From the NCBI RefSeq assembly GCF_055900595.2, contig NZ_CM148325.1: a stretch of DNA of 64,000 nt. The stretch is one strand, 5' to 3'. The position numbers were made by a program, and so were the translations under genes. Position 1 is the first letter of the stretch. Each line of letters opens with the position of its first letter. The notes beneath the pieces were generated by a model. The model saw only the letters and a list, made by a program, of their open reading frames with translations, was not told the origin of the DNA and did no database searches. Positions 11,209 through 49,743 of this stretch are shown here, in pieces.

Positions 11209-11234
11209 TGTCAGAATTTTATGAGGTATGACGA

Positions 11235-11705
11235 ATGGACATAACAAAAATCCTGAATACGAATCGCGTTATTTTAGATATGCAAGCGACGAATAAAGCG
11301 GAGGCGATTGAAGAATTAACTAATCTTCTCAAAAAAGATGGTGCGATCGATTGTCGGGAAACCTTTATTAAAGATGTCTGGCAGCGCGAAGCGGAAGGCT
11401 CGACTGGTTTTGAAAATCATATTGCGATCCCGCATGGTAAATCTTCAGCTGTGATTAATACTACGCTGGCAATTGGCCGTACCCGGCAGGATATTCCCTG
11501 GGAAACGCTGGATGGCAGTAGCGTGCGCTGTATTATTTTATTTGCGGTACGTCTTGAAGATCAAAATACCACCCATATCCGTTTACTTTCCCAGGTCGCG
11601 GGCGCGCTGGCGGATGATGACATCATAGAACAATTGTTAGTTGAGACGAGTCCGCAAAAAATCATTGATCTCTTTAGTCAGTATGCACAATCCGATGTCT
11701 GCTAA
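11235..11705 (+). CDS. PTS fructose-family EIIA component
   Basis: 156 aa; EIIA(Fru/Mtl/Ntr) phosphorylation-site motif HIAIPHG. Confidence 0.8.
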   Translation: MDITKILNTNRVILDMQATNKAEAIEELTNLLKKDGAIDCRETFIKDVWQREAEGSTGFENHIAIPHGKSSAVINTTLAIGRTRQDIPWETLDGSSVRCIILFAVRLEDQNTTHIRLLSQVAGALADDDIIEQLLVETSPQKIIDLFSQYAQSDVC

Positions 11706-11722
11706 ATAACAGGGAGTATGTC

Positions 11723-12037
11723 ATGAATATTGTCTGTGTTGCCGCCTGTACGGCGGGTATTGCTCATACCTATATTGCTCGTGAAAAGTTAATCAAAGGA
11801 GCAAAAGCTCTGGGCCATACCATTAAAGTTGAAACCCAGGGAACCATTGGTACAGAAAATGAATTACAGGCGGCAGATATCTCTGCTGCTGACGTCGTGA
11901 TTCTTGCTGTAGATGTGAAAATAAAAGGAGAAGAACGCTTCACCAATAAACGTATTGTGCGAGTAAAGACAGAGATTGTCATTAAATCGCCCGTTCAATT
12001 TCTTGAAAAGGTCGAAAAATCACTGGGAAACAAATGA
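11723..12037 (+). CDS. PTS fructose-family EIIB component
   Basis: 104 aa; motif CTAGIAHTYIA matches fructose-type EIIB CxxGIAHT active-site Cys loop. Confidence 0.8.
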   Translation: MNIVCVAACTAGIAHTYIAREKLIKGAKALGHTIKVETQGTIGTENELQAADISAADVVILAVDVKIKGEERFTNKRIVRVKTEIVIKSPVQFLEKVEKSLGNK

Positions 12038-29954: not shown

Positions 29955-30205
29955 GGTTCTCTCCCTAAAAATCTGTCTGGCAGGGTAGCGATTTGTGCGC
30001 ATTGTCACGATTGAGATTTTTTAAGGTGAGAGGGAATTGATAACTTGTAGTTATGTGAAATTGTTATTTTCTGTAGTGTGAATGCATTATTCTGATTTCG
30101 TGATAAGTAAAATGCATTAGAAAAAGTATGGAGTAATTAAACGTGAGGACGAAACTATATGCGTAGCGCCGCTGTAATTTACAACGGCCTACGGAGATAT
30201 GTTGT

Positions 30206-31069
30206 TTACTCAATATTCTGGATTTGCTCGCGCATCTGCTCGATCAACACTTTCAGCTCGATGGCAGAGTTTGTCACTTCGGCATTGATAGACTTCGAGG
30301 CCAGGGTGTTTGACTCGCGGTTGAACTCCTGCATCATAAAGTCCAGACGACGACCAACGGCTTCTTTTTTCTTCAGAATGTTGTAGGTCTCTTTAACATG
30401 CGCTTCGAGGCGGTCCAACTCTTCGGCAACGTCAATTCGTTGTGCCAGCAGAACCAACTCCTGCTCCAGACGGTTGTTCTCCAACTGAACCTGAGCATCT
30501 TCCAGCTTAGCGACCAGACGCTCACGCTGCCATTGCAGGATTTCCGGCATATGGGCGCGGACTTTGACCACTTCGGCGGTAACGCCTTCCAGACGCTGCT
30601 CGATCAATGCTTTCAGCGCCTGACCTTCGGTTTCGCGCGCGACGATAAAGTCATCCAGCGTACCATCCAGCGCCGCGAGAATTTCAGCAGCAATCGCGTC
30701 GAGATCCTGCTCCTGGGCTGCCATCACGCCTGGCCAACGGAGAATATCAACCGGGTTGATTTCCCCTTCGTCACTCTGCATTTTTACCCAGTTCGCGGCA
30801 GTTACCAGCTGTTTAGCCAGTTTTTCGTTGAGGATCAGCTCACCTTGTGCGCTGACATCTGGCTCATAGCGCAGGGTACATTCCACTTTACCACGCGTCA
30901 GGCGAGAACGAATACGCTCGCGAACGACAGGTTCAAGGCTACGGAACTGCTCCGGCAGACGAAAGTAAGTTTCCAGATAACGCTGGTTTACCGAGCGCAT
31001 TTCCCAGGTTGCGCTCCCCCATTCACCCTTGATTTCACGCCGGGCGTAGGCGGTCATACTGCGGATCAT
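30206..31069 (-). CDS. yicC: YicC-family stress-induced protein
   Basis: 287 aa; YicC N/C-terminal domain pattern; divergent from rph-pyrE. Confidence 0.85.
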   Translation of the reverse strand: MIRSMTAYARREIKGEWGSATWEMRSVNQRYLETYFRLPEQFRSLEPVVRERIRSRLTRGKVECTLRYEPDVSAQGELILNEKLAKQLVTAANWVKMQSDEGEINPVDILRWPGVMAAQEQDLDAIAAEILAALDGTLDDFIVARETEGQALKALIEQRLEGVTAEVVKVRAHMPEILQWQRERLVAKLEDAQVQLENNRLEQELVLLAQRIDVAEELDRLEAHVKETYNILKKKEAVGRRLDFMMQEFNRESNTLASKSINAEVTNSAIELKVLIEQMREQIQNIE

Positions 31070-32883: not shown

Positions 32884-32915
32884 CCTCTTTTGGTCGCCGT
32901 GATGTGGAGAGTGGA

Positions 32916-33875
32916 ATGGATGCTACCCGGATAACCCTTCTGGCGCTTGATTTGTTCGGCTCGCCGGGCTGGAGCGCCGATAAAGAAATACAGCGGCTGT
33001 ATGCGCTCAGTAATCATGCCGCACGCCATTACCGACGGATTATTCTTTCTAAGCGTCACGGCGGTCAGCGGGTGGTGTTAGCCCCTGATTACTTGCTCAA
33101 AACCGTACAGCGCAACATTCTTAAGAACGTCCTTTCACAATTCCCTCTTTCCCCTTTTGCTACCGCCTACCGACAGGGTCGCCCAATCGTCAGCAACGCG
33201 CAGCCTCACTGCCAACAGCCGCAGATCCTTAAACTCGATATCGAAAACTTTTTCGATAGCATTAGCTGGTTACAGGTCTGGCGTGTGTTTAGCCAGACCC
33301 AGTTGCCACGCAATGTGGTAACCATGCTGACCTGGCTTTGTTGCTATAACGACGCGTTACCGCAGGGGGCGCCAACTTCGCCTGCCATTTCCAATCTTGT
33401 GATGCGCCGTTTTGATGAGTGCATAGGGGAATGGTGTCAGGCTCGGGGAATTACCTACACCCGCTACTGCGATGACATGACCTTTTCTGGTCACTTCAAT
33501 GCCCGCCAGGTTAAAAATAAAGTATGCGGATTGTTAGCGGAGCTGGGCCTGAGCCTCAATCAACGCAAAAGTTGCCTGATAGCTGCCTGTAAGCGCCAGC
33601 AGGTAACCGGGATTGTTGTTAATCACAAGCCACAGCTTGCCCGTGAAGCGCGCCGGGCGCTGCGTCAGGAAGTACACTTGTGCCAAAAATATGGCGTTAT
33701 TTCGCATCTTAGTCATCGTGGTGAACTTGATCCTTCTGGCGATCTCCACGCACAGGCAACGGCGTATCTTTATGCTTTGCAGGGAAGAATAAACTGGTTA
33801 TTGCAAATCAATCCTGAGGATGAGGCCTTTAAACAGGCGAGGGTGAGTGTAAAGCGAATGCTGGTGGCATGGTAA
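32916..33875 (+). CDS. retron-type reverse transcriptase (Ec107-like, 319 aa)
   Basis: RT motifs LPQGAPTSPAISNL and YTRYCDDMTF (YxDD catalytic box) plus retron-specific VTG motif (QQVTGIVVNHKP); 319 aa if started at MDATRITL; located between pyrE and slmA. Confidence 0.85.
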   Translation: MDATRITLLALDLFGSPGWSADKEIQRLYALSNHAARHYRRIILSKRHGGQRVVLAPDYLLKTVQRNILKNVLSQFPLSPFATAYRQGRPIVSNAQPHCQQPQILKLDIENFFDSISWLQVWRVFSQTQLPRNVVTMLTWLCCYNDALPQGAPTSPAISNLVMRRFDECIGEWCQARGITYTRYCDDMTFSGHFNARQVKNKVCGLLAELGLSLNQRKSCLIAACKRQQVTGIVVNHKPQLAREARRALRQEVHLCQKYGVISHLSHRGELDPSGDLHAQATAYLYALQGRINWLLQINPEDEAFKQARVSVKRMLVAW

Positions 33876-34515: not shown

Positions 34516-34620
34516 GTTACAAAATACCCCTGAAAATAAGCACTTGCCAGGCGGCACCCACGCTATGACCGCAAACGAAATGTTTGCGGCTATGTTATGA
34601 CGTTATTCGGATGCGTAGTG

Positions 34621-35079
34621 TTACTGACGACCAGAGTGACCAAAGCCGCCTTCACCGCGGTCGGTGGCGTCGAAATCTTCCACCAGATTAAATTCAGCCT
34701 GTACTACCGGAACAAAAATCATCTGGGCGATGCGTTCGCCAGGTTGAATGGTGAAGCTGTCCTGACCACGGTTCCACACGGAAATCATCAACTGGCCCTG
34801 ATAGTCAGAATCGATCAATCCTACCAGGTTACCAAGCACGATACCGTGCTTATGTCCCAATCCGGAGCGCGGCAGCATCATTGCCGCCAGTGAAGGATCG
34901 GCAATATGAATCGCCAGCCCGGTCGGAACCAGCGTAGTGTCACCCGGAGCCAGTTCTACGGCGTCGTCGAGACAGGCACGCAGGTCAAGTCCGGCAGAGC
35001 CAGAGGTGGCATAAGTCGGGAGCGGAAATTCCTTCCCAACGCGCGGGTCCAGAATCTTAACGTCGATTTTTTTCATCAT
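34621..35079 (-). CDS. dut: dUTP diphosphatase
   Basis: 151-152 aa; [14 protein letters not shown]..., dUTPase motifs (GLDLRA, RSGLG). Confidence 0.9.
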
Positions 35080-36277
35080 AACGGGTCACGATCTCGTCGA
35101 GTAATAATTGGCCAAGGAGCTCTTTGCGCTCAAGCGGTAAGACTTTATCTCCGTCCTGCCAGAAAAGGTGTAATGCGTTGTTGTCGCTGTTAAATCCTTG
35201 AGTTGGCTGGGAAACATCGTTCGCGCAGATCAGATCAAGGTTTTTACGGATACGTTTTTGCCGGGCGTATTCTTCCACATTATTTGTTTCGGCGGCAAAT
35301 CCAACGACGTAGGGTCGATGGTCTTTTAGTGCGGCAACGCCTGCGACGATATCGGGGTTTTTAACCATTTTTATTGTTAATTCATCACCCTGCGTGGCCT
35401 GCTTTTTGATTTTCTCTGGGGCTACGGTAGCTGCGCGATAATCCGCCACGGCGGCGCAACCGATAAAAATATTTTGCTGCTGTACAGAAGCATTTACGGC
35501 GGCTTCCATTTCCAGCGCAGTCATTACATCAACACGTTTAACAAACGGTGGCGTCGGTAGCGAAACCGGACCTGATACCAGTGTGACGTTCGCGCCACGA
35601 CGGGCAGCAGCAGCAGCGATAGCAAACCCCATCTTGCCGGAGCTGTGATTAGAGATATAACGCACCGGGTCAAGCGGTTCACGCGTCGGGCCGGCGGTAA
35701 TCATAATGTTCAGATGTTTCAGGTCGTTGACGGGCGAAAAATGTGCTACCGCCATATCAACAATGGTTAACGGATCGAGCATTCGCCCAGGGCCGATATC
35801 ACCACAAGCCTGACTGCCGCTATCTGGCCCCCAGATGAGCAAACCACGCGAGGCAAGCAGCTCTAAATTATGCTGCGTGGCAGCTGCACGGTACATCTGC
35901 TGGTTCATGGCGGGCAGCACGGCTACAGGCGCAGGTGTAGCCAGGCAAATCGTCGATACCAGGTCATTCGCCATTCCGGCAGCAACACGGGCAATCAAAT
36001 CTGCCGTGGCAGGGGCGAGAATCACTAAATCAGCCCATTTACCCAGCTCAATATGGCCCATAGCGGCTTCGGCTGCCGGGTCAAGCAGACTGTCGGAAAC
36101 GGGATACCCCGAAACTGCCTGCAAGCTAAGTGGGGTAATAAAGGCTTTTGCCGCTTCGGTCATGGCTACGCGGACGTCGGCCCCGCGATCGCGCAAACGA
36201 CGCGCCAGTTCAGGGGTTTTATAGGCAGCAATACCGCCGCTGACGCCGAGAACGATTTTTTTACCGGCCAGGCTCAT
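35057..36277 (-). CDS. dfp: phosphopantothenoylcysteine decarboxylase / phosphopantothenate-cysteine ligase (CoaBC)
   Basis: 406 aa from [20 protein letters not shown] (flavoprotein fold). Confidence 0.9.
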
Positions 36278-36442
36278 GATGATTTTTCCTGTTGGGTGAC
36301 ACCAGAAGTTGGCGATTTTATCACAATACTTTTGTTGTCGTGCCTTCACCTGAAAATCACTTTGCGAGGCGCTTTCCAGGATTGAAAACTGACCGTCGAT
36401 TTAACGGAACGGCTATGACAGGATGCGAGCACCACAAAGGAG

Positions 36443-37117
36443 GTGAAGGTGAAAAACAATGCACAGCTGTTGATGCCGCGCGAAAAAATGCTGAAGTTTG
36501 GCATTGGTGCGTTAACGGATGTTGAGCTGCTGGCGCTATTTCTGCGTACCGGAACGCGCGGTAAAGATGTATTAACCCTGGCAAAAGAGATGCTGGAGAA
36601 TTTCGGCTCTCTTTATGGCTTGTTAACCTCTGAATATGAACAATTTAGCGGTGTTCATGGAATTGGTGTGGCGAAGTTCGCTCAGTTAAAGGGGATTGCT
36701 GAACTGGCGCGGCGTTACTACAACGTGCGGATGCGTGAAGAAAGCCCTTTACTCAGCCCGGAGATGACGAGGGAATTTTTACAAAGCCAGCTCACGGGCG
36801 AGGAGCGGGAGATCTTTATGGTGATCTTTCTCGACTCCCAACACAGGGTTATAACGCATAGCCGTCTTTTTTCCGGCACGCTAAACCATGTTGAAGTCCA
36901 TCCTCGGGAAATTATCCGCGAAGCGATAAAAATAAACGCCTCGGCGCTGATCCTTGCACATAATCACCCTTCGGGTTGTGCTGAACCCAGTAAAGCGGAT
37001 AAACTCATTACCGAACGGATAATAAAAAGTTGTCAGTTCATGGATTTACGCGTGCTCGACCATATCGTGATTGGGCGTGGAGAGTATGTTTCTTTTGCCG
37101 AACGCGGCTGGATTTAA
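36443..37117 (+). CDS. yicR: JAB/MPN-domain protein YicR (RadC-like)
   Basis: JAMM motif [10 protein letters not shown]; conserved position upstream of rpmB. Confidence 0.85.
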
Positions 37118-37312
37118 CCCGCTATGCGCGATCCTTCGGGATCTTTGTCTGTTCGGGACTTGAGCACATCGCTGAGTCAGCGTATACTACGCCACCTTTG
37201 AGAATCTCGGGTTTGGCATTTGGGCCTGGCAATCGAGAGTTCACATAGAACTGCGATGACCGGGCTGTAAAGCCTGACGAGGCGCCAATACCCCATACGA
37301 AGCTCGAGCTAA

Positions 37313-37570
<258 letters not shown>

Positions 37571-37587
37571 GTACTTAGAGGAAATAA

Positions 37588-37758
<171 letters not shown>

Positions 37759-37780
37759 TTCTCGCTTTGATGTAACGAAA

Positions 37781-37806
37781 AACCTCGCTCCGGCGGGGTT
37801 TTTTGT
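37781..37806 (+). terminator. rpmBG operon terminator
   Basis: GC-rich imperfect hairpin (CCTCGCTCCGGCGGGG) followed by TTTTTTGTT. Confidence 0.5.
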
Positions 37807-37855
37807 TATCTGCTTGCCCCCATATTGACTGCATCTGTTGATTCCTGGAGATGCT

Positions 37856-38665
37856 ATGCCTGAATTACCCGAAGTTGAAACCAGCCGCCGCGGCATAGAA
37901 CCGCATCTCGTTGGTGCAACCATTCTTCATGCGGTGGTGCGCAACGGACGCCTGCGCTGGCCGGTTTCGGAAGAGATCTACCGTTTAAGCGACCAACCAG
38001 TGCTTAGCGTGCAGCGCCGGGCTAAATATCTGCTGCTGGAGCTGCCTGAGGGCTGGATTATCATTCATTTAGGGATGTCTGGCAGCCTGCGCATCCTTCC
38101 AGAAGAGCTTCCCCCTGAAAAGCATGACCATGTTGATTTGGTGATGAGCAACGGCAAAGTGCTACGCTACACCGATCCGCGCCGCTTTGGTGCCTGGCTG
38201 TGGACCAAAGAGCTGGAAGGGCACAACGTGCTGGCCCATCTTGGACCGGAGCCGCTTAGTGACGATTTCAACGGTGAGTACCTGCATCAGAAGTGCGCGA
38301 AGAAAAAAACGGCGATTAAACCGTGGCTGATGGATAACAAGCTGGTGGTAGGCGTAGGGAATATCTATGCCAGCGAATCTCTGTTTGCGGCGGGGATCCA
38401 TCCGGATCGGCTGGCGTCATCACTGTCGCTGGCGGAGTGTGAATTGTTAGCTCGGGTGATTAAAGCGGTGTTGCTGCGTTCGATTGAGCAGGGCGGTACA
38501 ACTCTGAAAGATTTTCTGCAAAGTGATGGTAAACCGGGCTATTTCGCTCAGGAATTGCAGGTTTACGGGCGAAAAGGCGAGCCGTGTCGGGTGTGCGGTA
38601 CGCCGATTGTGGCGACGAAACATGCGCAGCGGGCAACGTTTTATTGTCGGCAGTGCCAGAAGTAA
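37856..38665 (+). CDS. mutM: formamidopyrimidine-DNA glycosylase
   Basis: 269 aa from [13 protein letters not shown] (catalytic Pro2/Glu3); C-terminal zinc finger CRVCGTPI...YCRQCQ. Confidence 0.9.
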
Positions 38666-38674
38666 TTGATGCGC

Positions 38675-38696
38675 GCCGGATGGCATACCATCCGGC
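38675..38696. terminator. hairpin between convergent mutM and coaD (probable bidirectional terminator)
   Basis: Perfect 9-bp stem GCCGGATGG / CCATCCGGC with 4-nt loop CATA. Confidence 0.45.
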
Positions 38697-38703
38697 ATAA
38701 ACG

Positions 38704-40468
<1,765 letters not shown>

Positions 40469-40819
40469 AGTAAATAGCTGACTTATGGATGTGCTGGGGA
40501 TTCTATGTATTTAGCTGTGGCTTTACCATTACTTTTCCCGTTTTTGACTTAAATAGCAATTTACCCACCAATTCTTGCTGAACATCTATACTTTTTTTGT
40601 ATTTTTATGCGATTCATTGATTTCCGCAGTACGTGCAGTAAGGAATCGCGGAGCAACAGTGAAAGAATATTGTTGCTAATGATTTTATTTGATTGATTTC
40701 TTTATTGAAAAACAACGATGTGCTTAAAAATCATTCGGATCGGATTGCCGCGAAAGAAGTGATACACTAGCGCGTCAATATCAGTACGGTATCAGTATTC
40801 AGGTAGCTGTTGAGCCTGG

Positions 40820-40831
40820 GGCGGTAGCGTG
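40820..40831 (+). promoter_or_regulatory. ops element (GGCGGTAGCGTG) within a JUMPStart-like leader upstream of waaQ; RfaH recruitment site
   Basis: Exact ops core GGCGGTAG-CGTG on the non-template strand about 50 nt upstream of the waaQ start. Confidence 0.7.
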
Positions 40832-40880
40832 CTTTTTCTGCTTCACCTTAATCGGATAATCTCAACAAAAAGAGTTACTT

Positions 40881-41939
40881 GTGGATAAGCCATTTCGAAG
40901 AATTTTGCTCATTAAGATGCGTTTTCATGGGGATATGTTATTAACTACTCCTGTCATTAGTTCGCTGAAAAAAAATTACCCTGACGCAAAAATCGATGTG
41001 CTGCTTTATCAGGATACCATCCCGATTCTGTCTGAAAATCCAGAGATTAACGCGCTCTACGGCATAAAAAATAAAAAAGCAAAAGCCTCAGAGAAAATTT
41101 CCAACTTTTTTCATCTCATCAAGGTATTACGTGCCAATAAGTATGACCTTATCGTCAATCTTACCGATCAATGGATGGTTGCTATACTGGTTCGCTTATT
41201 AAATGCCCGTGTGAAAATTTCCCAGGATTATCATCATCGGCAGTCTGCTTTTTGGCGTAAAAGCTTCACCCATCTGGTGCCGTTGCAGGGTGGAAATGTG
41301 GTGGAAAGTAACTTATCCGTGCTGACGCCACTGGGTCTCGAATCGTTGGTGAAGCAGACAACGATGAGTTACCCGCCTGCAAGCTGGAAACGAATGCGTC
41401 GCGAACTGGATCACGCAGGTGTTGGACAAAATTATGTGGTTATCCAACCTACCGCGCGGCAAATCTTCAAATGCTGGGACAACGCCAAGTTTTCCGCTGT
41501 GATTGATGCCTTACATACACGTGGCTATGAAGTCGTTCTGACGTCCGGCCCGGATAAAGACGATCTGGCCTGCGTCAATGAAATTGCGCAGGGATGCCAG
41601 ACGCCACCAGTAACGGCGTTGGCCGGAAAGGTAACCTTCCCGGAACTTGGTGCGTTAATCGATCATGCGCAGCTGTTTATTGGCGTTGATTCCGCACCGG
41701 CGCACATTGCCGCTGCAGTTAATACGCCGCTGATATCGCTGTTTGGTGCAACAGACCATATTTTCTGGCGTCCCTGGTCAAATAACATGATTCAATTCTG
41801 GGCGGGAGATTACCGGGAAATGCCAACACGCGATCAGCGTGACCGAAATGAGATGTATCTTTCGGTTATTCCGGCGGCAGATGTCATTGCTGCTGTTGAT
41901 AAATTATTGCCATCCTCCACGACAGGTACGTCGTTATGA
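40881..41939 (+). CDS. waaQ: LPS heptosyltransferase III (GT9)
   Basis: GT9 heptosyltransferase; first gene of the central waa operon; start uncertain (GTG at 40881 or ATG at MRFHGD). Confidence 0.85.
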   Translation: MDKPFRRILLIKMRFHGDMLLTTPVISSLKKNYPDAKIDVLLYQDTIPILSENPEINALYGIKNKKAKASEKISNFFHLIKVLRANKYDLIVNLTDQWMVAILVRLLNARVKISQDYHHRQSAFWRKSFTHLVPLQGGNVVESNLSVLTPLGLESLVKQTTMSYPPASWKRMRRELDHAGVGQNYVVIQPTARQIFKCWDNAKFSAVIDALHTRGYEVVLTSGPDKDDLACVNEIAQGCQTPPVTALAGKVTFPELGALIDHAQLFIGVDSAPAHIAAAVNTPLISLFGATDHIFWRPWSNNMIQFWAGDYREMPTRDQRDRNEMYLSVIPAADVIAAVDKLLPSSTTGTSL

Positions 41940-43060
41940 TCGTTGCTTTCTGTTTATATAAATATTTTCCCTTTGGCGGTTTGCAACGCGATTTTATGCG
42001 TATTGCTCAGACAGTTGCGGCCCGAGGGCATCATGTTCGGGTTTATGCCCAGTCATGGGAAGGCGAATGCCCTGATGTGTTTGAACTGATCAACGTGCCG
42101 GTTAAGTCGCATACCAATCACGGGCGTAACGCGGAGTATTTTGCCTGGGTGCAAAAACATTTACGCGAGCATCCGGTCGATAAAGTCGTTGGATTCAACA
42201 AAATGCCGGGGCTGGACGTTTATTATGCCGCTGATGTTTGTTATGCCGAGAAAGTGGCGCAGGAGAAAGGCTTTTTCTATCGCCTGACGTCACGTTATCG
42301 CCATTATGCCGCCTTTGAGCGGGCAACCTTTGAACAGGGCAAGCCGACACAGTTGCTGATGCTGACGGACAAGCAAATCGCCGATTTCCAGAAACATTAT
42401 CAGACTGAAGCGGAGCGTTTTCATATTTTGCCTCCGGGGATTTATCCTGACCGTAAATATAGCCAGCAGCCAGCCAATAGCCGTGAAAGCTTTCGTAAGA
42501 AAAATGGAATAACAGAACAACAATATTTATTGTTGCAGGTCGGTTCAGACTTCACGCGTAAAGGTGTCGATCGTTCCATTGAAGCACTTGCTTCGCTCCC
42601 GGATTCACTGCGCCACAACACATTGCTATATGTTGTTGGGCAGGATAAACCGCGAAAATTTGAGGCACTGGCAGAAAAACGCGGCGTGCGCAGTAATGTT
42701 CACTTCTTCTCTGGGCGTAACGATGTCTCGGAATTAATGGCGGCGGCGGATTTATTACTGCATCCTGCCTACCAGGAAGCGGCGGGAATTGTGCTGCTGG
42801 AAGCGATTACTGCAGGATTACCGGTTCTAACAACTGCTGTTTGTGGTTATGCGCATTATATTGTTGACGCGAATTGCGGCGTGGCTATTGCTGAGCCATT
42901 CCGTCAGGAAACATTGAATGAGTTTTTACGCAAAGCGTTAACGCAATCTTCATTGCGCCAGGCCTGGGCGGAAAATGCGCGACATTATGCTGATACACAA
43001 GATTTATACAGTCTGCCAGAGAAAGCGGCGGATATCATAACGGGTGGTCTGGATGGTTGA
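41936..43060 (+). CDS. waaG: LPS core alpha-1,3-glucosyltransferase I (GT4)
   Basis: 374 aa; GT4 family; ATGA overlap with waaQ stop. Confidence 0.9.
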
Positions 43061-43850
43061 ACTGAAAGAGCCGTTTGCCACGTTATGGCGCGGTAAAGAT
43101 CCTTTTGAGGAAGTTAAAACCTTGCAGGGTGAGGTATTTCGTGAACTGGAAACTCGCCGCACTCTGCGCTTTGAAATGGCGGGCAAAAGCTATTTTCTCA
43201 AATGGCATCGCGGCACGACCCTGAAAGAGATAATCAAAAATTTACTCTCATTGCGGATGCCAGTATTAGGTGCAGACCGTGAATGGAATGCGATTCATCG
43301 GCTGCGGGATGTCGGCGTTGATACTATGTATGGGGTGGCATTCGGCGAAAAAGGCATTAATCCGCTGACCAGAACTTCGTTTATTATTACCGAAGATCTG
43401 ACGCCAACTATCAGTCTGGAAGATTACTGTGCTGACTGGGCGACTAACCCACCAGATGTCCGCGTAAAGCGTATGCTTATTAAACGTGTCGCGACGATGG
43501 TGCGCGATATGCATGCTGCGGGCATTAACCACCGTGACTGTTATATCTGTCATTTCCTGCTGCACTTGCCTTTTTCTGGTAGGGAAGATGAGTTAAAAAT
43601 TTCAGTAATTGACCTGCACCGGGCGCAGCTTCGCACGCGCGTTCCACGTCGTTGGCGCGATAAAGATCTTATTGGGCTTTATTTTTCTTCGATGAATATT
43701 GGCCTGACTCAGCGTGATATCTGGCGATTTATGAAGGTATATTTTGCCGTACCGCTTAAAGACATACTCAAGCAGGAACAAGGGCTGCTGTCGCAAGCAG
43801 AAGCAAAAGCCACGAAAATCAGGGAAAGAACGATTAGAAAATCGTTGTAA
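43053..43850 (+). CDS. waaP: LPS core heptose(I) kinase
   Basis: 265 aa from [12 protein letters not shown]; kinase-like motif ([11 protein letters not shown]). Confidence 0.9.
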
Positions 43851-43865
43851 TTTCCGGAGAGAAAT

Positions 43866-44882
43866 ATGAGTGCCCACTATTTTAATCCACAAGAGATGAT
43901 CAATAAGACAATCATCTTCGATGAAAGGCCAGAGGCGTCAGTGGCATCATCATTCCATGTTGCTTATGGCATTGATCAGAACTTTCTTTTTGGTTGTGGT
44001 GTTTCAATCACGTCAGTTTTGTTACATAACAACGACGTGAGTTTTGTCTTCCACGTTTTTATTGATGATATCCCTGACGCCGATATCCAGCGTTTATCCC
44101 AATTGGCGAAAAGCTATCATACCTGTATCCAGATCCATCTGGTAAATTGTGAACGGCTTAAGGTATTACCGACGACCAAAAATTGGTCTATTGCCATGTA
44201 TTTCCGTTTTGTAATTGCAGATTACTTTATTGATCAACAAGATAAGATCCTGTACCTGGATGCTGATATCGCCTGTCAGGGAACCTTAAAACCGCTGATA
44301 ACAATGGATCTTGCCAATAACGTTGCTGCTGTTGTTACTGAACGCGATGCTAACTGGTGGTCGTTACGGGCTCAAAGTCTGCAGTGTAATGAACTTGAAA
44401 AGGGTTACTTTAATTCAGGTGTCCTGTTAATTAATACACTAGCGTGGGCGCAGGAGTCCGTTTCTGCTAAAGCGATGTCGATGCTTGCTGATAAAGCCGT
44501 CGTTTCCCGTTTAACCTATATGGATCAAGATATACTAAATCTTATCCTGTTAGGGAAAGTTAAATTCATTGATGCTAAATACAATACGCAATTTAGTTTA
44601 AATTATGAATTAAAAAAATCATTTATTTGTCCAATTAATGATGAAACCGTATTAATTCATTATGTCGGCCCGACAAAACCTTGGCATTACTGGGCCGGTT
44701 ATCCAAGCGCGCAGCCATTTATCAAAGCCAAAGAAGCATCGCCATGGAAAAATGAACCGTTAATGCGGCCAATTAACTCAAATTATGCTCGTTATTGCGC
44801 TAAGCATAATTTTAAACAAAATAAACCAATTAACGGGATAATGAATTATATTTATTATTTTTATTTAAAGATAATAAAATGA
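43866..44882 (+). CDS. waaO: LPS outer-core alpha-glycosyltransferase, GT8 family (WaaO/WaaI-like)
   Basis: 338 aa; GT8 DxD motif YLDADIACQG; AT-rich. Confidence 0.7.
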   Translation: MSAHYFNPQEMINKTIIFDERPEASVASSFHVAYGIDQNFLFGCGVSITSVLLHNNDVSFVFHVFIDDIPDADIQRLSQLAKSYHTCIQIHLVNCERLKVLPTTKNWSIAMYFRFVIADYFIDQQDKILYLDADIACQGTLKPLITMDLANNVAAVVTERDANWWSLRAQSLQCNELEKGYFNSGVLLINTLAWAQESVSAKAMSMLADKAVVSRLTYMDQDILNLILLGKVKFIDAKYNTQFSLNYELKKSFICPINDETVLIHYVGPTKPWHYWAGYPSAQPFIKAKEASPWKNEPLMRPINSNYARYCAKHNFKQNKPINGIMNYIYYFYLKIIK

Positions 44883-44898
44883 CATTGAGAAAAGTTAA

Positions 44899-45894
44899 AT
44901 GAATGAATTTATAAAAGAACGGTTTTCGTATTTAGCAGATAATAAAAAAGAAAACGTCCCAGAGCTAAATGTTTCCTACGGTATCGATAAGAATTTTTTG
45001 TATGGTGCTGGCGTTTCAATTTCTTCCGTTTTGATTAATAATTCAGATATTAATTTTGTCTTTCATGTTTTCACTGATTATGTGGATGATGATTATTTAA
45101 AGTCATTTGATGAAACAGCAAAACAATTTAATACCTCAATTATTGTATATTTAATTGACCCAAAATACTTTGCTGATCTGCCGACGTCACAGTTTTGGTC
45201 GTACGCGACATACTTCAGGGTATTGTCCTTTGAATATCTGAGTGAAAGTATTTCCACACTGCTGTATCTGGATGCCGATGTCGTTTGTAAAGGAAGTCTG
45301 AAACCTCTCACAAAAATTATATTTAAAGATGAGTTTGCTGCGGTTATTCCTGACAATGATAGTACTCAGGCGGCATGTGCAAAACGTCTTAACATTCCCG
45401 AAATGAATGGACGTTATTTCAATGCAGGCGTTATCTATGTCAATCTTAAAAAATGGCATGAAGCAAATTTGACACCGTATTTACTCACGCTTTTACGAGG
45501 GGAAACTAAATATGGCTCTCTTAAATATTTAGATCAGGATGCGTTGAATATCGCATTTAATATGAATAATATCTACCTCGCGAAGGATTTTGATACTATT
45601 TATACCCTGAAAAACGAACTTCATGATCGTAGTCATCGAAAGTATCAGCAAACCATTACCGATAAAACAGTATTGATTCACTATACAGGGATAACTAAAC
45701 CATGGCATAGCTGGGCTGGATATCCGTCTGCATCATACTTTAATATCGCGCGTGAACAATCTCCCTGGAAGAAATATCCTCTTAAAGAGGCGCGGACTGT
45801 TGCAGAAATGCAGAAACAATATAAGCATCTGTTTGCCCATGGTGAGTATATAAAAGGCATAACTTCATTAATTAAGTACAAGCTTAAGAAATAA
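44899..45894 (+). CDS. LPS outer-core alpha-glycosyltransferase, GT8 family (WaaT-like position)
   Basis: 331 aa; GT8 motif YLDADVVCKG; position between waaO and waaY as in R1/R4 core loci. Confidence 0.6.
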   Translation: MNEFIKERFSYLADNKKENVPELNVSYGIDKNFLYGAGVSISSVLINNSDINFVFHVFTDYVDDDYLKSFDETAKQFNTSIIVYLIDPKYFADLPTSQFWSYATYFRVLSFEYLSESISTLLYLDADVVCKGSLKPLTKIIFKDEFAAVIPDNDSTQAACAKRLNIPEMNGRYFNAGVIYVNLKKWHEANLTPYLLTLLRGETKYGSLKYLDQDALNIAFNMNNIYLAKDFDTIYTLKNELHDRSHRKYQQTITDKTVLIHYTGITKPWHSWAGYPSASYFNIAREQSPWKKYPLKEARTVAEMQKQYKHLFAHGEYIKGITSLIKYKLKK

Positions 45895-45903
45895 ATTACT
45901 CTT

Positions 45904-46596
45904 ATGATTACAAGTATACGTTATCGCGGCTTCTCATTTTATTACAAAGATAATGATAATAAATATAAAGAAATCTTTGATGAAATACTGGCCTATAATT
46001 TTAAAACAGTAAAAGTATTACGTAATATTGATGATACCAAAGTATCGTTGATTGATACGAAATATGGTCGCTATGTTTTTAAAGTCTTTGCTCCGAAAAC
46101 GAAAAGGAATGAACGTTTTTTAAAATCTTTTGTAAAAGGTGACTACTATCAGAATTTGATCGTTGAAACCGATCGTGTCAGAAGTGCAGGTCTTACTTTT
46201 CCTAATGATTTTTATTTTCTGGCTGAGCGTAAAATTTTCAACTATGCCAGTGTTTTTATCATGCTTATCGAGTATGTCGAGGGCGTAGAGCTCAATGATA
46301 TGCCGATTATTCCAGAAAATGTTAAAGCAGAAATTAAGGCTTCAATGGAAAAATTGCATGCCTTAAATATGCTATCGGGCGACCCACACCGGGGTAACTT
46401 TATCGTTAGTAAAGATGGTGTCAGGATAATTGACCTATCCGGTAAAAGCTGTACGGCAGAGCGTAAAGCTCGTGATCGTCTGGCCATGGAACGTCACCTG
46501 GGTATTGCCAACGAAATAAAAGATTATGGCTACTATTCAGTAATCTACAGAACCAAACTACGCAAATTTATTAAAAAATTAAAAGGCAAAGCGTAA
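45904..46596 (+). CDS. waaY: LPS core heptose(II) kinase
   Basis: 230 aa; small kinase-like protein with DPHRGNF motif. Confidence 0.75.
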   Translation: MITSIRYRGFSFYYKDNDNKYKEIFDEILAYNFKTVKVLRNIDDTKVSLIDTKYGRYVFKVFAPKTKRNERFLKSFVKGDYYQNLIVETDRVRSAGLTFPNDFYFLAERKIFNYASVFIMLIEYVEGVELNDMPIIPENVKAEIKASMEKLHALNMLSGDPHRGNFIVSKDGVRIIDLSGKSCTAERKARDRLAMERHLGIANEIKDYGYYSVIYRTKLRKFIKKLKGKA

Positions 46597-46621
46597 ACCA
46601 CACAGTCAAAACGGAACCAAC

Positions 46622-47650
46622 ATGGATTTATTAGCTGAGAGTATTACTGAAGTCGCTGTCTCTGGGGAAATTGCTAACACCGATCGTGTGTTAAATATCG
46701 CTTACGGTATTGACCGTAATTTTTTATTTGGTGCGGCAGTATCTATGCAATCAGTTGTTATGCATAACCCAGACCTTGCGGTTAAGTTTCATCTCTTTAC
46801 CGACTACATTGATGAAGATTATCTACAACGTGTTAACGCTTTTACCAGCAAAAATGCTAACGTTGAAGTAAGAATTTATAAAGTCTCCAGTGTCTTTATT
46901 GATATCTTCCCCAGCCTGAAACAGTGGTCTTATGCAACATTCTTCCGTTTAGTTGCGTTCCAGTATCTGAGTGAAACTATTGAAAATCTGTTATATATCG
47001 ATGCTGATGTCATCTGTAAAGGCTCATTAGCTGGATTGCTTGATATTAATTTTGATGGCGATAAATTCGCAGCTGTTATTAAAGATGTGCCTTTTATGCA
47101 GGAAAAACCAGCGAAGCGTCTGGCTATAGAGGGGCTTCCAGGGAATTATTTCAACGCCGGTGTAGTATATCTGCAGCTTGAAGCGTGGGCGAAAAATGAT
47201 TTTATGAATAAAGCCATTGCTATGCTGGCAAGTGACCCGCAGCACACGAAGTATAAATGCCTTGATCAGGATATTTTAAATATTCTGTTCTTTGGTCATT
47301 GTATTTTTATTAGCGGCGATTATGATTGCTTTTATGGCATTGACTATGAGTTAAAAAATAAAAGCGATGAAGATTATAAAAAGACCATTACCGATGATAC
47401 TAAGCTGATTCATTATGTTGGCGTAACGAAGCCCTGGAACGACTGGACGAATTATCCCTGCCAGAAGTATTTTAATGAGGCTTATCAAGCTTCTTGCTGG
47501 AATGATGTGGCGTTTATTCCAGCCACGAATGAAAAACAGTATCAAGTGAAATCCAGACATTTGAAAAGAAATGGTAATATTGCATCTTCATTTTACTATT
47601 TCATGCTCTATTATAGTAAGAAAATAGCGCGTAAGCATTTTTCCAAATAA
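46622..47650 (+). CDS. LPS outer-core alpha-glycosyltransferase, GT8 family (WaaW-like position)
   Basis: 342 aa; GT8 motif YIDADVICKG. Confidence 0.6.
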   Translation: MDLLAESITEVAVSGEIANTDRVLNIAYGIDRNFLFGAAVSMQSVVMHNPDLAVKFHLFTDYIDEDYLQRVNAFTSKNANVEVRIYKVSSVFIDIFPSLKQWSYATFFRLVAFQYLSETIENLLYIDADVICKGSLAGLLDINFDGDKFAAVIKDVPFMQEKPAKRLAIEGLPGNYFNAGVVYLQLEAWAKNDFMNKAIAMLASDPQHTKYKCLDQDILNILFFGHCIFISGDYDCFYGIDYELKNKSDEDYKKTITDDTKLIHYVGVTKPWNDWTNYPCQKYFNEAYQASCWNDVAFIPATNEKQYQVKSRHLKRNGNIASSFYYFMLYYSKKIARKHFSK

Positions 47651-47681
47651 TTATTAAGACTAATCATCCAGGGATTTTTTA

Positions 47682-48455
47682 ATGAACTTGCCCATTTATA
47701 TTGTCTCACTTAAAAGAGATATTGAGCGAAGAAATAAAATAAATGATGTCTTTCATCGATTAAACATTAATTTTGATTTTTTTGATGCCATAGATGCTAA
47801 AGATCCTCAAAATAAAGAAATTATTAATGAAATGAGATTAAGTGGTGTCGGCGCAGAAATGACTGATGGAGAAATTGCTTGTACGTTAAGTCATCAGCTT
47901 ATATATCAGGATATGATAGATAAAAATATAGAATGGGCAGTCATTCTAGAGGACGATGTTATCGTCAATGAGAAATTTAAAAATTTCCTTCAATACTTTA
48001 ATCCTTCTGAAAAAGACAAGTTAAAATATAATAATTTGTATTTGCTTGGAGGTCAGAAAGGATTACATGATTATCCAGTATTGGGGCAAAGCCTTTTTAG
48101 TAAAGTTAAGGTAAGTACTTGTATTTTTCGTCGTGTTAATTTTAATAAAAATAAAATTCGTCGTACATGTTCATATTTGATGAATAACGATATGGCACTA
48201 AAGTTGCTCAAATTGACAAAGGATTATGGCACCTATCGAGCTGATAGCTGGAAGTTAATGCATCAACATAATATTATAAAAGATTTTTATTTAGACGAAA
48301 TAATATTACATCCTATTTTAAATGAGTTTAATAGTCACCTTGAAAGTGAAAGGCTTTTAATATCGGAAAAAAAACAACCCAGGACAAGGCTTCAGAAAAA
48401 AATGAAGTTTATACGTTCCTGGATAAAGGTGGCTTTTTTTTCTCTTTTGAAATGA
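47682..48455 (+). CDS. LPS outer-core beta-glycosyltransferase, GT25 family (WaaV/WaaX-like)
   Basis: 257 aa; GT25 (Lic2A/LgtB-like) N-terminal pattern IYIVSLKRDIERRNKI...FFDAID. Confidence 0.55.
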   Translation: MNLPIYIVSLKRDIERRNKINDVFHRLNINFDFFDAIDAKDPQNKEIINEMRLSGVGAEMTDGEIACTLSHQLIYQDMIDKNIEWAVILEDDVIVNEKFKNFLQYFNPSEKDKLKYNNLYLLGGQKGLHDYPVLGQSLFSKVKVSTCIFRRVNFNKNKIRRTCSYLMNNDMALKLLKLTKDYGTYRADSWKLMHQHNIIKDFYLDEIILHPILNEFNSHLESERLLISEKKQPRTRLQKKMKFIRSWIKVAFFSLLK

Positions 48456-48489
48456 GATTGTTAATTTCAATTTATTGTGAGATATTAAC

Positions 48490-49743
48490 GTGGAAGTAAA
48501 AATTGAGCAATTTCGAAATAATAGCTGTAATTTTATTTTTTTATTATATTTAATCGGTTTGTTGTTTGTGCCAATTGATCTAAATATTACCACTAAAATA
48601 ATTAATGCTACAGGTGCATTTTCTCTTTTTTTATTAATTGTAAATAACAAGCATAATTATAATAAAAATATCATTATATTAATTCTTGGCTTACTTCTTT
48701 TGGGTGCAATGAACCTGATATGGTATGAGTTTTATAAAACAGAAGATGTAGTATATAGAAATGCTTATCGAGGCTATCTTGAGTCTGGAAAACTATTAGT
48801 ATTTAGCTCGTTGACATTTTTATTACTAAGTAAAAATAAATTCAGGCAAAATGAAAAGCTACATTTTATTTCAGCTATCTTAGTTCAAATAATCATGCTA
48901 TGTAGAGCATATTATCAAGGGATATATTTGCATGCAGACCGCATTCCCCTCTCCGCCATGAATGGGAATATTGGTCAGATGGGGGCAGCGACTATTGCGG
49001 CTTATGTGATTACATTCACTACTTTATATTCTTCAATTGTATTCATCAAAATGCAATCGAAATATAAATGGTTTCTATTTTATGCTAACTTTGCTTTAAG
49101 CTTTGCAGCAGTAATGATGACAGGAACGCGTGCGGCAATTTTCACATTCCCACTTATGATTATGGTCATATTATTTCTTCAGCATCGTGATCAAAAAGTG
49201 TTTTTATTTAAAGGATTGAGTGGTGTTTTTATATTGCTACTTGCTTGTGGTTTGATATTTAATAAGGAAATTGAGAGGCGAATTAATTCATTAAAAGCTG
49301 ATGTTATTTCATATGCTACAAAAAATAACAGTCAATCCTCGGTCGGAGCACGTTTTGCAATGGTTAATGCAGGAATTAAAGGAAGTCCTGATGGTTTTAA
49401 TTGGCAATCTCTTGAGCAGCGTGCTGAAAAGATAAAAGCATTAAGTGCAGAAAATAATATTTATAGTGGAGCTTTATTATTCCTTGATGTACATATGCAT
49501 AATGAAATTGTTGAAGCTCTTTCCACGAAAGGGAAAATTGGTCTTCTTGTTCTTATTATGTTCTATGTTGCAATGATCTACTACTGTATCCGGGAGAAAA
49601 AATATATACTTTTGGTTTTCCCTGCTTCTATTATGTTATTTGGCATTAGTGATGTCATTACGCATGCTAAACCAATACCGGCATCGTGGATTGTGTGCCT
49701 CTTCCTGTCTATATCGTTTTTGAGTAAAAAAGAACCACAATAA
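48490..49743 (+). CDS. waaL: O-antigen ligase (start codon uncertain)
   Basis: 417 aa, very hydrophobic polytopic protein with large periplasmic loop; last gene of outer-core operon; AT-rich. Confidence 0.75.
   Translation: MEVKIEQFRNNSCNFIFLLYLIGLLFVPIDLNITTKIINATGAFSLFLLIVNNKHNYNKNIIILILGLLLLGAMNLIWYEFYKTEDVVYRNAYRGYLESGKLLVFSSLTFLLLSKNKFRQNEKLHFISAILVQIIMLCRAYYQGIYLHADRIPLSAMNGNIGQMGAATIAAYVITFTTLYSSIVFIKMQSKYKWFLFYANFALSFAAVMMTGTRAAIFTFPLMIMVILFLQHRDQKVFLFKGLSGVFILLLACGLIFNKEIERRINSLKADVISYATKNNSQSSVGARFAMVNAGIKGSPDGFNWQSLEQRAEKIKALSAENNIYSGALLFLDVHMHNEIVEALSTKGKIGLLVLIMFYVAMIYYCIREKKYILLVFPASIMLFGISDVITHAKPIPASWIVCLFLSISFLSKKEPQ

Follow-up and report, generated by a model that had tools for sequence, protein, structure and literature searches.

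A probable RfaH-loading ops site between waaA and waaQ in an Escherichia coli strain with an R4-type LPS core

The control region between the divergent genes waaA and waaQ contains the 12-mer GGCGGTAGCGTG, which is very probably the genuine ops site of the waaQ operon and loads RfaH for anti-termination. The element as such is already known, as a JUMPStart/ops sequence in front of waaQ is textbook biology. That RfaH loading, the pause at ops and the RNA RirA also hold in the R4 strain is what we infer from the identical or near-identical sequences of other strains.

The ops site, its JUMPStart context and its surroundings

The window, i.e. the whole 64-kb stretch of DNA that was analysed, is from E. 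coli and carries an R4-type LPS core locus; compared with E. coli strain Z0117EC0005, there are 6 mismatches in 28412 bases (about 28.4 kb). waaQ and the eight genes after it all lie on the + strand and make up an operon of about 8.9 kb. Pfam assigned GT9 to WaaQ, GT25 to the waaX slot (47682-48455) and Wzy_C to WaaL; the order waaQGPOTYW, followed by the GT25 gene waaX and then by waaL on the same strand, is that of the R4 type. In R1 strains, the slot of the GT25 gene waaX holds a GT2 gene. In agreement with this assignment, the primers R4-F and R1R4-R of the typing PCR match exactly in silico and give a product of 380 bp (47491-47870); primers and product length have been published (PMC13293308). 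The outer-core (distal) genes contain 30-38% GC, a low value that fits an H-NS/Rho-sensitive operon. Transcription of waaA, whose ATG is at 40468, runs away from the control region.

The initial annotation had described an AT-rich gap of about 410 bp between divergent waaA and waaQ. The gap measures 412 bp and has a GC content of 37.9%, compared with 49.3% window-wide; about 9% of 412-bp windows equal or exceed its AT-richness. The ten small ORFs that overlap the gap (21-46 aa) were rejected as candidate genes; the ATG ORF at 40607 is, in comparison with K-12, unconserved past its first four codons. Table 1 lists the features of the region.

Table 1. Features of the waaA-waaQ control region and of the adjacent genes
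Feature	Position	Strand	Basis or content
waaA (kdtA), Kdo transferase	39191..40468	-	425-aa ORF; RefSeq annotation of Z0117EC0005
Candidate waaA promoter	40500..40528	-	-35 TGGTAA 40528-40523, 17 nt, -10 TAGAAT 40505-40500
Conserved island	40582..40620		core TTTTTTTGTATTTTTATGCGATTCATTGA within otherwise unalignable spacer
Haplotype-specific AT-rich spacer	40621..40718 (with 40558-40581)		common to R4/R1/R3, replaced in K-12/R2
waaQ/rirA promoter	40740..40768	+	conserved TCGGATTGC (40740-40748) and extended -10 TGaTACACT (40760-40768)
Inferred transcription start of waaQ mRNA and RirA	40775	+	MG1655 rirA 5' end (3808238) by homology
RirA homologue (RfaH-interacting RNA)	40775..40846	+	local alignment to MG1655 rirA
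Predicted extended RNA hairpin, then U5 tract	40783-40833, 40833-40837	+	folding; function hypothetical
JUMPStart element	40793..40831	+	Rfam RF01707, 55.2 bits (gathering score 35)
JUMPStart 5-bp hairpin	arms 40800-40804 and 40814-40818	+	CAGGU pairs with GCCUG
ops, RfaH recruitment and pause signal	40820-40831	+	exact 12-mer, 0 mismatches
Shine-Dalgarno-like AAGAG (weak) and GTG start of waaQ	40870-40874 and 40881-40883	+	cross-genus conservation
waaQ	40881-41939	+	starts with GTG
Operon waaQ-G-P-O-T-Y-W-X-L, R4 core type	40881..49743	+	ORFs, Z0117EC0005 annotation, Pfam, typing PCR

The exact ops core upstream of waaQ, which the initial annotation had placed at 40820-40831, was found at this position on the + strand. 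It is the only full ops 12-mer in the window; one other site matches with at most one mismatch (GGCAGTAGCGTG at 11514; 0.32 expected at that stringency). The motif conforms to the consensus GGCGGTAGnnTG, and bases 3-8, which RfaH contacts and which are needed by RfaH and not for pausing (PMC5995543), are all intact. T11-G12 is present as well, and the pause positions are G10 (40829) and U11 (40830). The 8-mer GGCGGTAG occurs six times in the window (1.16 expected); since the five other copies lie inside long ORFs and lack both T11-G12 and the JUMPStart sequence, only the copy at 40820-40831 is a complete element. All of the additional ops-like sites, i.e. the one at 11514 and these five 8-mers, were rejected: each lies in an ORF, two are on the template strand, and none is accompanied by T11-G12 or JUMPStart. 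The five 8-mers thereby agree with the finding that ops-like sites in coding regions do not bind RfaH (PMC9765446).

Neither of the two conditions that the initial annotation had named as refuting applies: the motif lies on the + strand and hence on the non-template (coding) strand with respect to waaQ, and it is excluded from the coding sequence, ending 49 nt before the most upstream start that the in-frame stop codon TAA (40857-59) permits. With the transcription start placed by homology, ops would occupy +46 to +57 of the untranslated leader.

The ops sequence is the 3' end of a complete JUMPStart element. The match spans the Rfam model completely (positions 1-38 of 38); its E-value is 8e-12 locally and 6.4e-10 window-wide, and it is one of only two Rfam matches in 64 kb. 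A JUMPStart pattern scan of one genome per species gave at least 120 loci; the 5' arm of the stem was unconstrained by the search pattern. Among the 120 loci listed, which come from other genomes, stem pair 2 is U-A in 77, A-U in 24, G-U in 9 and G-C in 4 cases and unpaired in 6, and pair 5 is U-G in 112, G-C in 6 and A-U in 2; pairing within the stem reaches 95-100%, compared with 22-32% if the 5' arm is slid. The predicted 5-bp stem is thus backed by compensatory changes at pairs 2 and 5. The leader 40775-40883 (109 nt) folds no better than shuffled sequences (z = -0.3), and the same is true for 40793-40840 (z = +0.5), so that it is the covariation, and not the folding of the whole leader, that would support any role of JUMPStart at the RNA level. 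Folding the 12 nt of ops as DNA gave a marginal hairpin only, whose register differs from the published one.

The element is nearly universal in the species: the 48-mer 40793-40840, which comprises JUMPStart and ops, was found in 5423 of 5426 complete E. coli genomes with an identity of at least 95.9%. The stretch 40790-40837 is identical in the R1, R3, R4 and K-12 alleles, and the R2 allele has a single A-to-G change in it, which preserves the base pair. For 29 of the 120 listed JUMPStart loci, waaQ is directly downstream, in most cases with divergent waaA upstream; these waaQ-type loci include those of E. albertii, E. whittamii, several Citrobacter, Kosakonia, Shimwellia, Pluralibacter, Silvania, Cedecea and Intestinirhabdus. 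In the Pectobacterium, Symbiopectobacterium and Serratia loci, which also have waaQ downstream, tblastn detected no upstream waaA. Judged from these sequence comparisons, the layout waaA/JUMPStart/waaQ recurs in other Enterobacterales.

Concerning the start of waaQ, GTG 40881 is the most upstream codon possible, and an alternative ATG (40917) is further downstream; the MG1655 annotation lets waaQ begin at the internal ATG (344 aa). Comparison of 14-15 leaders from at least nine genera showed an invariant GTG and, 6 nt before it, an almost invariant AAGAG (AAGGG in C. youngae). The 12 codons between the GTG and the internal ATG change mostly synonymously or conservatively, and the segment RILLIK, which precedes the internal ATG, is presumably the first strand of the GT9 fold. 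For these reasons, GTG 40881 is favoured over the internal ATG; either start leaves ops in the leader. Note that reviews describe RfaH operons as being without a ribosome-binding site, whereas a nearly invariant AAGAG is found here 6 nt before the GTG.

Transcription of the leader and loading of RfaH

The proposed promoter includes the -10 hexamer TACACT (40763-68), preceded by TG at 40760-61. The pattern TGnTAC(A/T)(C/A)T is kept, with n being free, in every Enterobacteriaceae-type waaQ leader examined, and the extended -10 improves to TGGTACAAT in Kosakonia (TACAAT) and to TGGTATAAT in Citrobacter youngae (TATAAT). A fixed TG and hexamer with a free base between them is what one would expect of an extended -10 promoter. 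A sigma-70 scan of the region gave two promoter-like sites where 1.6 were expected, which is not above chance, and a separate hexamer scan found no convincing promoter by score; the assignment is consequently based on cross-genus conservation and on the rirA annotation of K-12. In NC_000913.3, the sRNA rirA (b4760) is annotated at 3808166-3808238. Its homologue in the window comprises 72 nt instead of 73 and differs by six substitutions and one missing T (about 90% identity). RirA has been described as an RNA of 73 nt that contains JUMPStart and ops and has its 5' end in common with the waaQ mRNA (PMC5736990, PMC6358824, PMC8745692). The start derived from this homology, 40775, is about 6-7 nt past the extended -10 and 45 nt upstream of ops, and would give a 5' UTR of 106 nt. 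The transcription-unit start predicted from RNA-seq in CFT073 maps to 40793, 18 nt further downstream, which is compatible with a coverage-based estimate.

The recruitment of RfaH, which the initial annotation had claimed for this motif, is supported by the identity of the region to sequences tested in two other strains, by ChIP-seq in CFT073 and by Term-seq in K-12. The R1-core strain CFT073 aligns collinearly with the window, differing at 12 of 472 nt and not at all in 40787-40930, and ops precedes the gene start by 61 nt in both. In CFT073, the RfaH ChIP-seq signal begins at the rfaQ ops and extends over the rfaQ transcription unit (PMC9765446, Data set S2); this signal is gone in an rfaH deletion (PMC9765446). 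In the R4 strain, the gene for the factor, rfaH, maps outside the window. RfaH has been characterized as a counter-silencer of H-NS on the rfa operon (PMC9765446). For K-12, Term-seq located the dominant 3' end of the leader at 3808184 (LB) and 3808183 (PMC7815308), which are G10 and U11 of ops and correspond to 40829 and 40830 in the window. The format of the Term-seq table was checked on the rpmG terminator, which shows that base 51 of the 61-nt string marks the 3' end. The leader 3' end in K-12 is Rho-independent (Rho score 1.04; PMC7815308), and U11 is the known pause position of ops, whose individual bases have defined roles (PMC5995543). The K-12 3' ends thus correspond to RNAs of 55-56 nt, and not to the 73 nt of RirA.

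Based on the published steps of RfaH action at ops (non-template hairpin, refolding, block of NusG, Rho and H-NS, ribosome recruitment; PMC5995543, PMC9765446), the following sequence of events may be proposed. RNA polymerase would start at about 40775 from the extended -10 promoter, transcribe JUMPStart, and pause when its active site reaches U11 of ops (40830). The non-template strand of the paused bubble, GGCGGTAGCGTG, would fold into a small hairpin exposing G5 and T6. RfaH would bind this ops hairpin, its C-terminal domain would refold, and the factor would stay on the polymerase, where it would exclude NusG, suppress pausing and Rho/H-NS-mediated termination, and assist ribosome recruitment at the weak start site (AAGAG, 6 nt, GTG 40881). 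As a consequence of this action, the AT-rich waaQGPOTYWXL operon of about 8.9 kb would be transcribed to its end. The same leader would also yield the short RNA RirA (40775 to about 40846), which holds the ops sequence; RirA has been reported to titrate RfaH (PMC6358824, PMC5736990, PMC8745692).

Loading of RfaH at ops has to be weighed against two other readings. One is that the 12-mer matches by chance or is simply a consensus pause unconnected with RfaH. Short G-rich motifs do recur, as the six copies of GGCGGTAG in the window illustrate, and ops matches the general pause consensus (PMC5995543). However, this reading is extremely improbable given the complete JUMPStart context of 39 nt (window-wide E = 6e-10), the near-universal presence of the element in E. 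coli and its occurrence at the same position before waaQ across genera, the RfaH ChIP signal on the identical CFT073 sequence, and the intact bases 3-8, which only RfaH needs. According to the other reading, the element would work mainly in trans: it would chiefly be the gene for the sRNA RirA, a decoy sequestering RfaH, and anti-termination in cis would be secondary. The annotation of rirA at the homologous K-12 position is in line with this idea, but the phenotypes of RirA come from overexpression, the RfaH ChIP signal spans the whole rfa transcription unit in CFT073 as well as in K-12 (PMC9765446), and JUMPStart/ops precedes many other long operons without a RirA-like role. Moreover, structural and mutational work has established that RfaH reads the non-template DNA strand (PMC5995543). 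We therefore judge a predominant role in trans to be quite improbable and retain RfaH loading in cis as the main explanation, which none of the observations contradicts.

A further proposal would add to RfaH loading and is not exclusive of it. The leader may act as an attenuator, in which the predicted hairpin 40783-40833 and its U tract make the ops pause prone to termination and thereby generate RirA, while RfaH drives read-through; the availability of RfaH would then set the ratio of RirA to full-length waaQ mRNA. We regard this model as possible but rather unlikely. In the hairpin, which is long and imperfect, the ops RNA is the 3' arm and pairs with the upstream segment CAGUACGGUAUCAGU. 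The fold of 40775-40838 is stable, with an MFE of -20.3 kcal/mol and z = -2.9 (z = -2.3 for K-12 RirA), and 96% of cells are paired in 15 cross-genus leaders, compared with 28-52% when the arms are slid; note, however, that the shuffle control is weak (7/500), that the structure was derived from the same alignment as the pairing count, and that the invariance of ops makes only one-sided base changes visible. Among the matches listed, a hairpin followed by a U-run of at least four occurs in 21 of 29 waaQ-type leaders and in 6 of 90 other JUMPStart loci, but owing to the phylogenetic relatedness of the waaQ-type leaders, the 21 cases are not independent of each other. The hairpin was not picked up by the terminator scan. 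The K-12 data bear on the model in both directions: the leader 3' end is Rho-independent and has an intrinsic-terminator score of 6.28, which exceeds the threshold of 3.0 (PMC7815308), yet the Term-seq ends are at G10/U11 of ops instead of in the U tract, 7-9 nt beyond the stem, and Term-seq lists no 3' end at the U tract or at the annotated end of RirA. The possibility that Term-seq had recorded an end after the U tract was ruled out, as the table format puts it at G10/U11. With 3' ends at these two bases, the simplest reading is that they stem from complexes paused or released at ops.

Haplotype structure of the intergenic region

The statement that the regulatory leader is retained while the downstream cargo is swapped applies to one comparison and has to be qualified for another. 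Relative to the R1 and R3 loci it applies: the intergenic region and waaQGP are 96-100% identical, and the similarity ends further downstream, namely at 47580 for R1 (F11; 97% over 39000-47579, with the break extending until waaC) and after waaP, at 43850, for R3. Relative to K-12 and R2, the leader is not kept as a block, and what is preserved is the functional island. Aligning the region with the K-12 waaQ leader, as the initial annotation had suggested, gave 48 identical bases (40790-40837) that cover JUMPStart and ops. The identity to K-12 is 95% in waaA and 100% in the intergenic segment 40469-40557, drops to 46% in 40558-40718, amounts to 91% in the island 40719-40837 with promoter, JUMPStart and ops, and is 60% in the post-ops leader 40838-40880; for waaQ, waaG and waaP the values are 70%, 79% and 74%. 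As only the island 40719-40837 is kept with respect to K-12/R2, it is a functional island that is conserved and not the leader as a block. By this sequence comparison, the whole operon, including the flanks of the leader, is a diverged haplotype relative to K-12/R2. Two main classes of the intergenic region can be distinguished among 5426 genomes: in 4467 its identity to the window is at least 95%, and in 937 it is 60-80%. These classes, in combination with the identities of the segments, place the boundary between the haplotypes (R1/R3/R4 versus K-12/R2) at about 40558, within the intergenic region.

The waaA-proximal block 40469-40557, which houses the candidate waaA promoter, is 100% identical in R1 F11, R1 B, R3 and K-12 and 89.9% identical in R2; it is also strongly conserved across genera. 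The adjacent block 40558-40718 has an identity of 90.5% to the R1/R3 alleles and of 46-52% to K-12/R2. Within it lies the short island 40582-40620. Six E. coli alleles share its core, which begins at about 40592, without any change, and four positions at the 5' edge vary; the core can also be recognised in E. albertii, E. whittamii, Citrobacter, Pluralibacter and Kosakonia. In 40582-40620, no conserved ORF, no Rfam match and no promoter were found; the island could be the site of a regulator not yet described. Two other candidates in this part of the region were rejected. A terminator-like hairpin at 40652-40677, inside the haplotype-specific spacer, is at chance level (one found, 0.6 expected), and a snoR03 match at 40597-40738 (E = 0.29; 28 bits, threshold 80) was treated as a chance hit.

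Relation to known systems and implications

Among the closest known systems is the waaQ (rfaQ)/rirA leader of K-12, with which it has in common the flanking genes, the extended -10 (TGATACACT), the position of the transcription start, the 48 identical bases 40790-40837, the RirA region (about 90%) and the start context of AAGAG, 6 nt and GTG. It differs from K-12 in a U tract that is one T shorter, in five substitutions within the first 18 nt of the transcript, and in the downstream genes, which are of the R4 type; the spacer (46%), the post-ops leader (60%) and waaQGP (70-79%) represent a different, old haplotype. The difference to CFT073 concerns the last two genes of the operon, which are the GT2 gene waaV and an R1 waaL there and the GT25 gene waaX and an R4 waaL here. 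With the leaders of rfb/wzx, wza/cps, kps, hly and tra (RF01707), the region shares the 39-nt element, its 5-bp hairpin and GGCGGTAGCGTG at the 3' end and, as in other RfaH operons, the element belongs to the untranslated 5' region of an operon that is long, AT-rich and horizontally exchanged. In contrast to other JUMPStart sequences, the waaQ-type copies of Escherichia and Citrobacter have A-U instead of U-A at stem pair 2; the same copies have CAGTATT instead of CAGTGCA upstream, and in most cases a U tract comes after them and a stretch complementary to the ops RNA before them.

As with ops, a signal transcribed early makes the polymerase resistant to termination in the cases of nut and N of phage lambda, of lambda Q at qut, and of the put RNA of HK022. 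Whereas nut and put act as RNA hairpins and Q acts at a promoter-proximal, sigma-dependent pause, ops works as single-stranded non-template DNA, which is read by a NusG paralogue at the pause site (PMC5995543).

For the annotation of the locus, the analysis yields the start of waaQ at GTG 40881 instead of the internal ATG used in MG1655, a transcription start and RirA homologue at 40775-40846, and the assignment of the locus to type R4. If the leader did act as an attenuator, the polymerase would stop near ops in the absence of RfaH and release RirA as a decoy, and would read through in its presence; this would be a built-in feedback between the supply of RfaH and the expression of the LPS core. 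The constancy of the island amid exchanged genes is the signature expected of purifying selection on the RfaH signal. In summary, the classic element of JUMPStart/ops, RfaH and RirA was re-identified where it is expected in an R4 strain of E. coli, and the haplotype comparison gives a cleaner picture of the variation of the waa locus.

Transcript 3' end and start codon of waaQ

Published Term-seq data for E. coli K-12 class the 3' end within the waaQ leader among the unexplained "orphan" ends; its intrinsic-terminator score is 6.28 (PMC7815308). Transferred to the window, the K-12 3' ends 3808183 and 3808184 fall on positions 40830 and 40829, which are exactly U11 and G10 of ops. The annotated 3' end of RirA, the sRNA originating from this leader, lies 17-18 nt beyond the Term-seq 3' end; therefore, the length of RirA in vivo may differ from the annotated one.

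For waaQ itself, two start codons have been annotated. The MG1655 annotation uses an internal ATG (window position 40917), which gives 344 aa, and PGAP uses an upstream GTG (40881), resulting in 352 aa here and in 356 aa in K-12 C600. Because the GTG, the preceding AAGAG, and the 12 codons between GTG and ATG are kept across genera, sequence conservation favours the GTG as the probable start.

Conserved and inserted elements of the waaA-waaQ spacer

The spacer also contains an AT-rich conserved island (40582-40620) with the core TTTTTTTGTATTTTTATGCGATTCATTGA. This core does not vary among six E. coli waa alleles and can still be made out in Citrobacter, Pluralibacter, Kosakonia, E. albertii, and E. 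whittamii; spacer sequence flanking the island cannot be aligned. In E. coli strain E2, which has an R2 core, the IS4-family element ISVsa5 is located inside the spacer (locus L005 of this strain, 10696-11904). Downstream of the insertion, the promoter/JUMPStart island is intact and matches window positions 40725-40875.

Occurrences of ops-like sequences elsewhere

The 8-mer GGCGGTAG occurs six times in the 64 kb, compared to 1.16 copies expected from shuffles, and in all six cases the next base is a C. The five copies outside the leader (see table) are probably a codon-usage effect, brought about by Gly-Gly-Ser or Ala-Val-Ala. Exact JUMPStart/ops sequences were also found in contigs labelled as Arthrobacter, an Erysipelotrichia MAG, a Peptococcaceae MAG, and Chryseobacterium (loci L029, L054, L096, and L125); most likely, these are contaminant or mis-binned enterobacterial contigs.

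Features located in the window outside the waaA-waaQ spacer
Feature	Position	Strand	Remark
GGCGGTAG copy	13789	+	inside ORF
GGCGGTAG copy	14606	+	inside ORF
GGCGGTAG copy	29742	+	inside ORF
GGCGGTAG copy	33167	-	inside ORF
GGCGGTAG copy	35753	-	inside ORF
Retron-type reverse transcriptase	32904-33875	+	Pfam RVT_1; PADLOC RT_Ec107-like, E = 7e-133
selC (tRNA-Sec gene)	5267-5357	-	Rfam; only match in the window besides JUMPStart

Variation and exchange in the neighbourhood

The retron-type reverse transcriptase is flanked by pyrE and slmA, and its locus gave no Rfam match at the gathering threshold. K-12 C600, F11, O55:H7 DEC5B, B, and EC-14-2-9 lack the gene at this site, where retron Ec107 is reported to be inserted. 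A common integration hotspot is selC. Judged by the annotation of the near-identical genome of strain Z0117EC0005, dinD is missing here from the gap between yicG and yicC (about 30008-30206), where K-12, F11, B, and the R2 strains carry it.

The genes coaBC, coaD, and waaA (34600-40468) are unusually diverged, reaching 21 mismatches per 200 nt, and to an equal extent from the K-12, R1, R2, and R3 alleles; waaA is about 95% identical. By contrast, the 89 nt of intergenic DNA next to waaA show 100% identity with four of the five alleles compared. This pattern suggests that coaBC-coaD-waaA was imported or is an old allele, and that a recombination edge lies near the waaA start. The GC content of the outer-core genes waaO through waaL (43866-49743) is 30-38%, compared to 47-48% for waaQGP and 51-55% for waaA, waaC, and waaF; this low value fits horizontally exchanged, H-NS-prone DNA.
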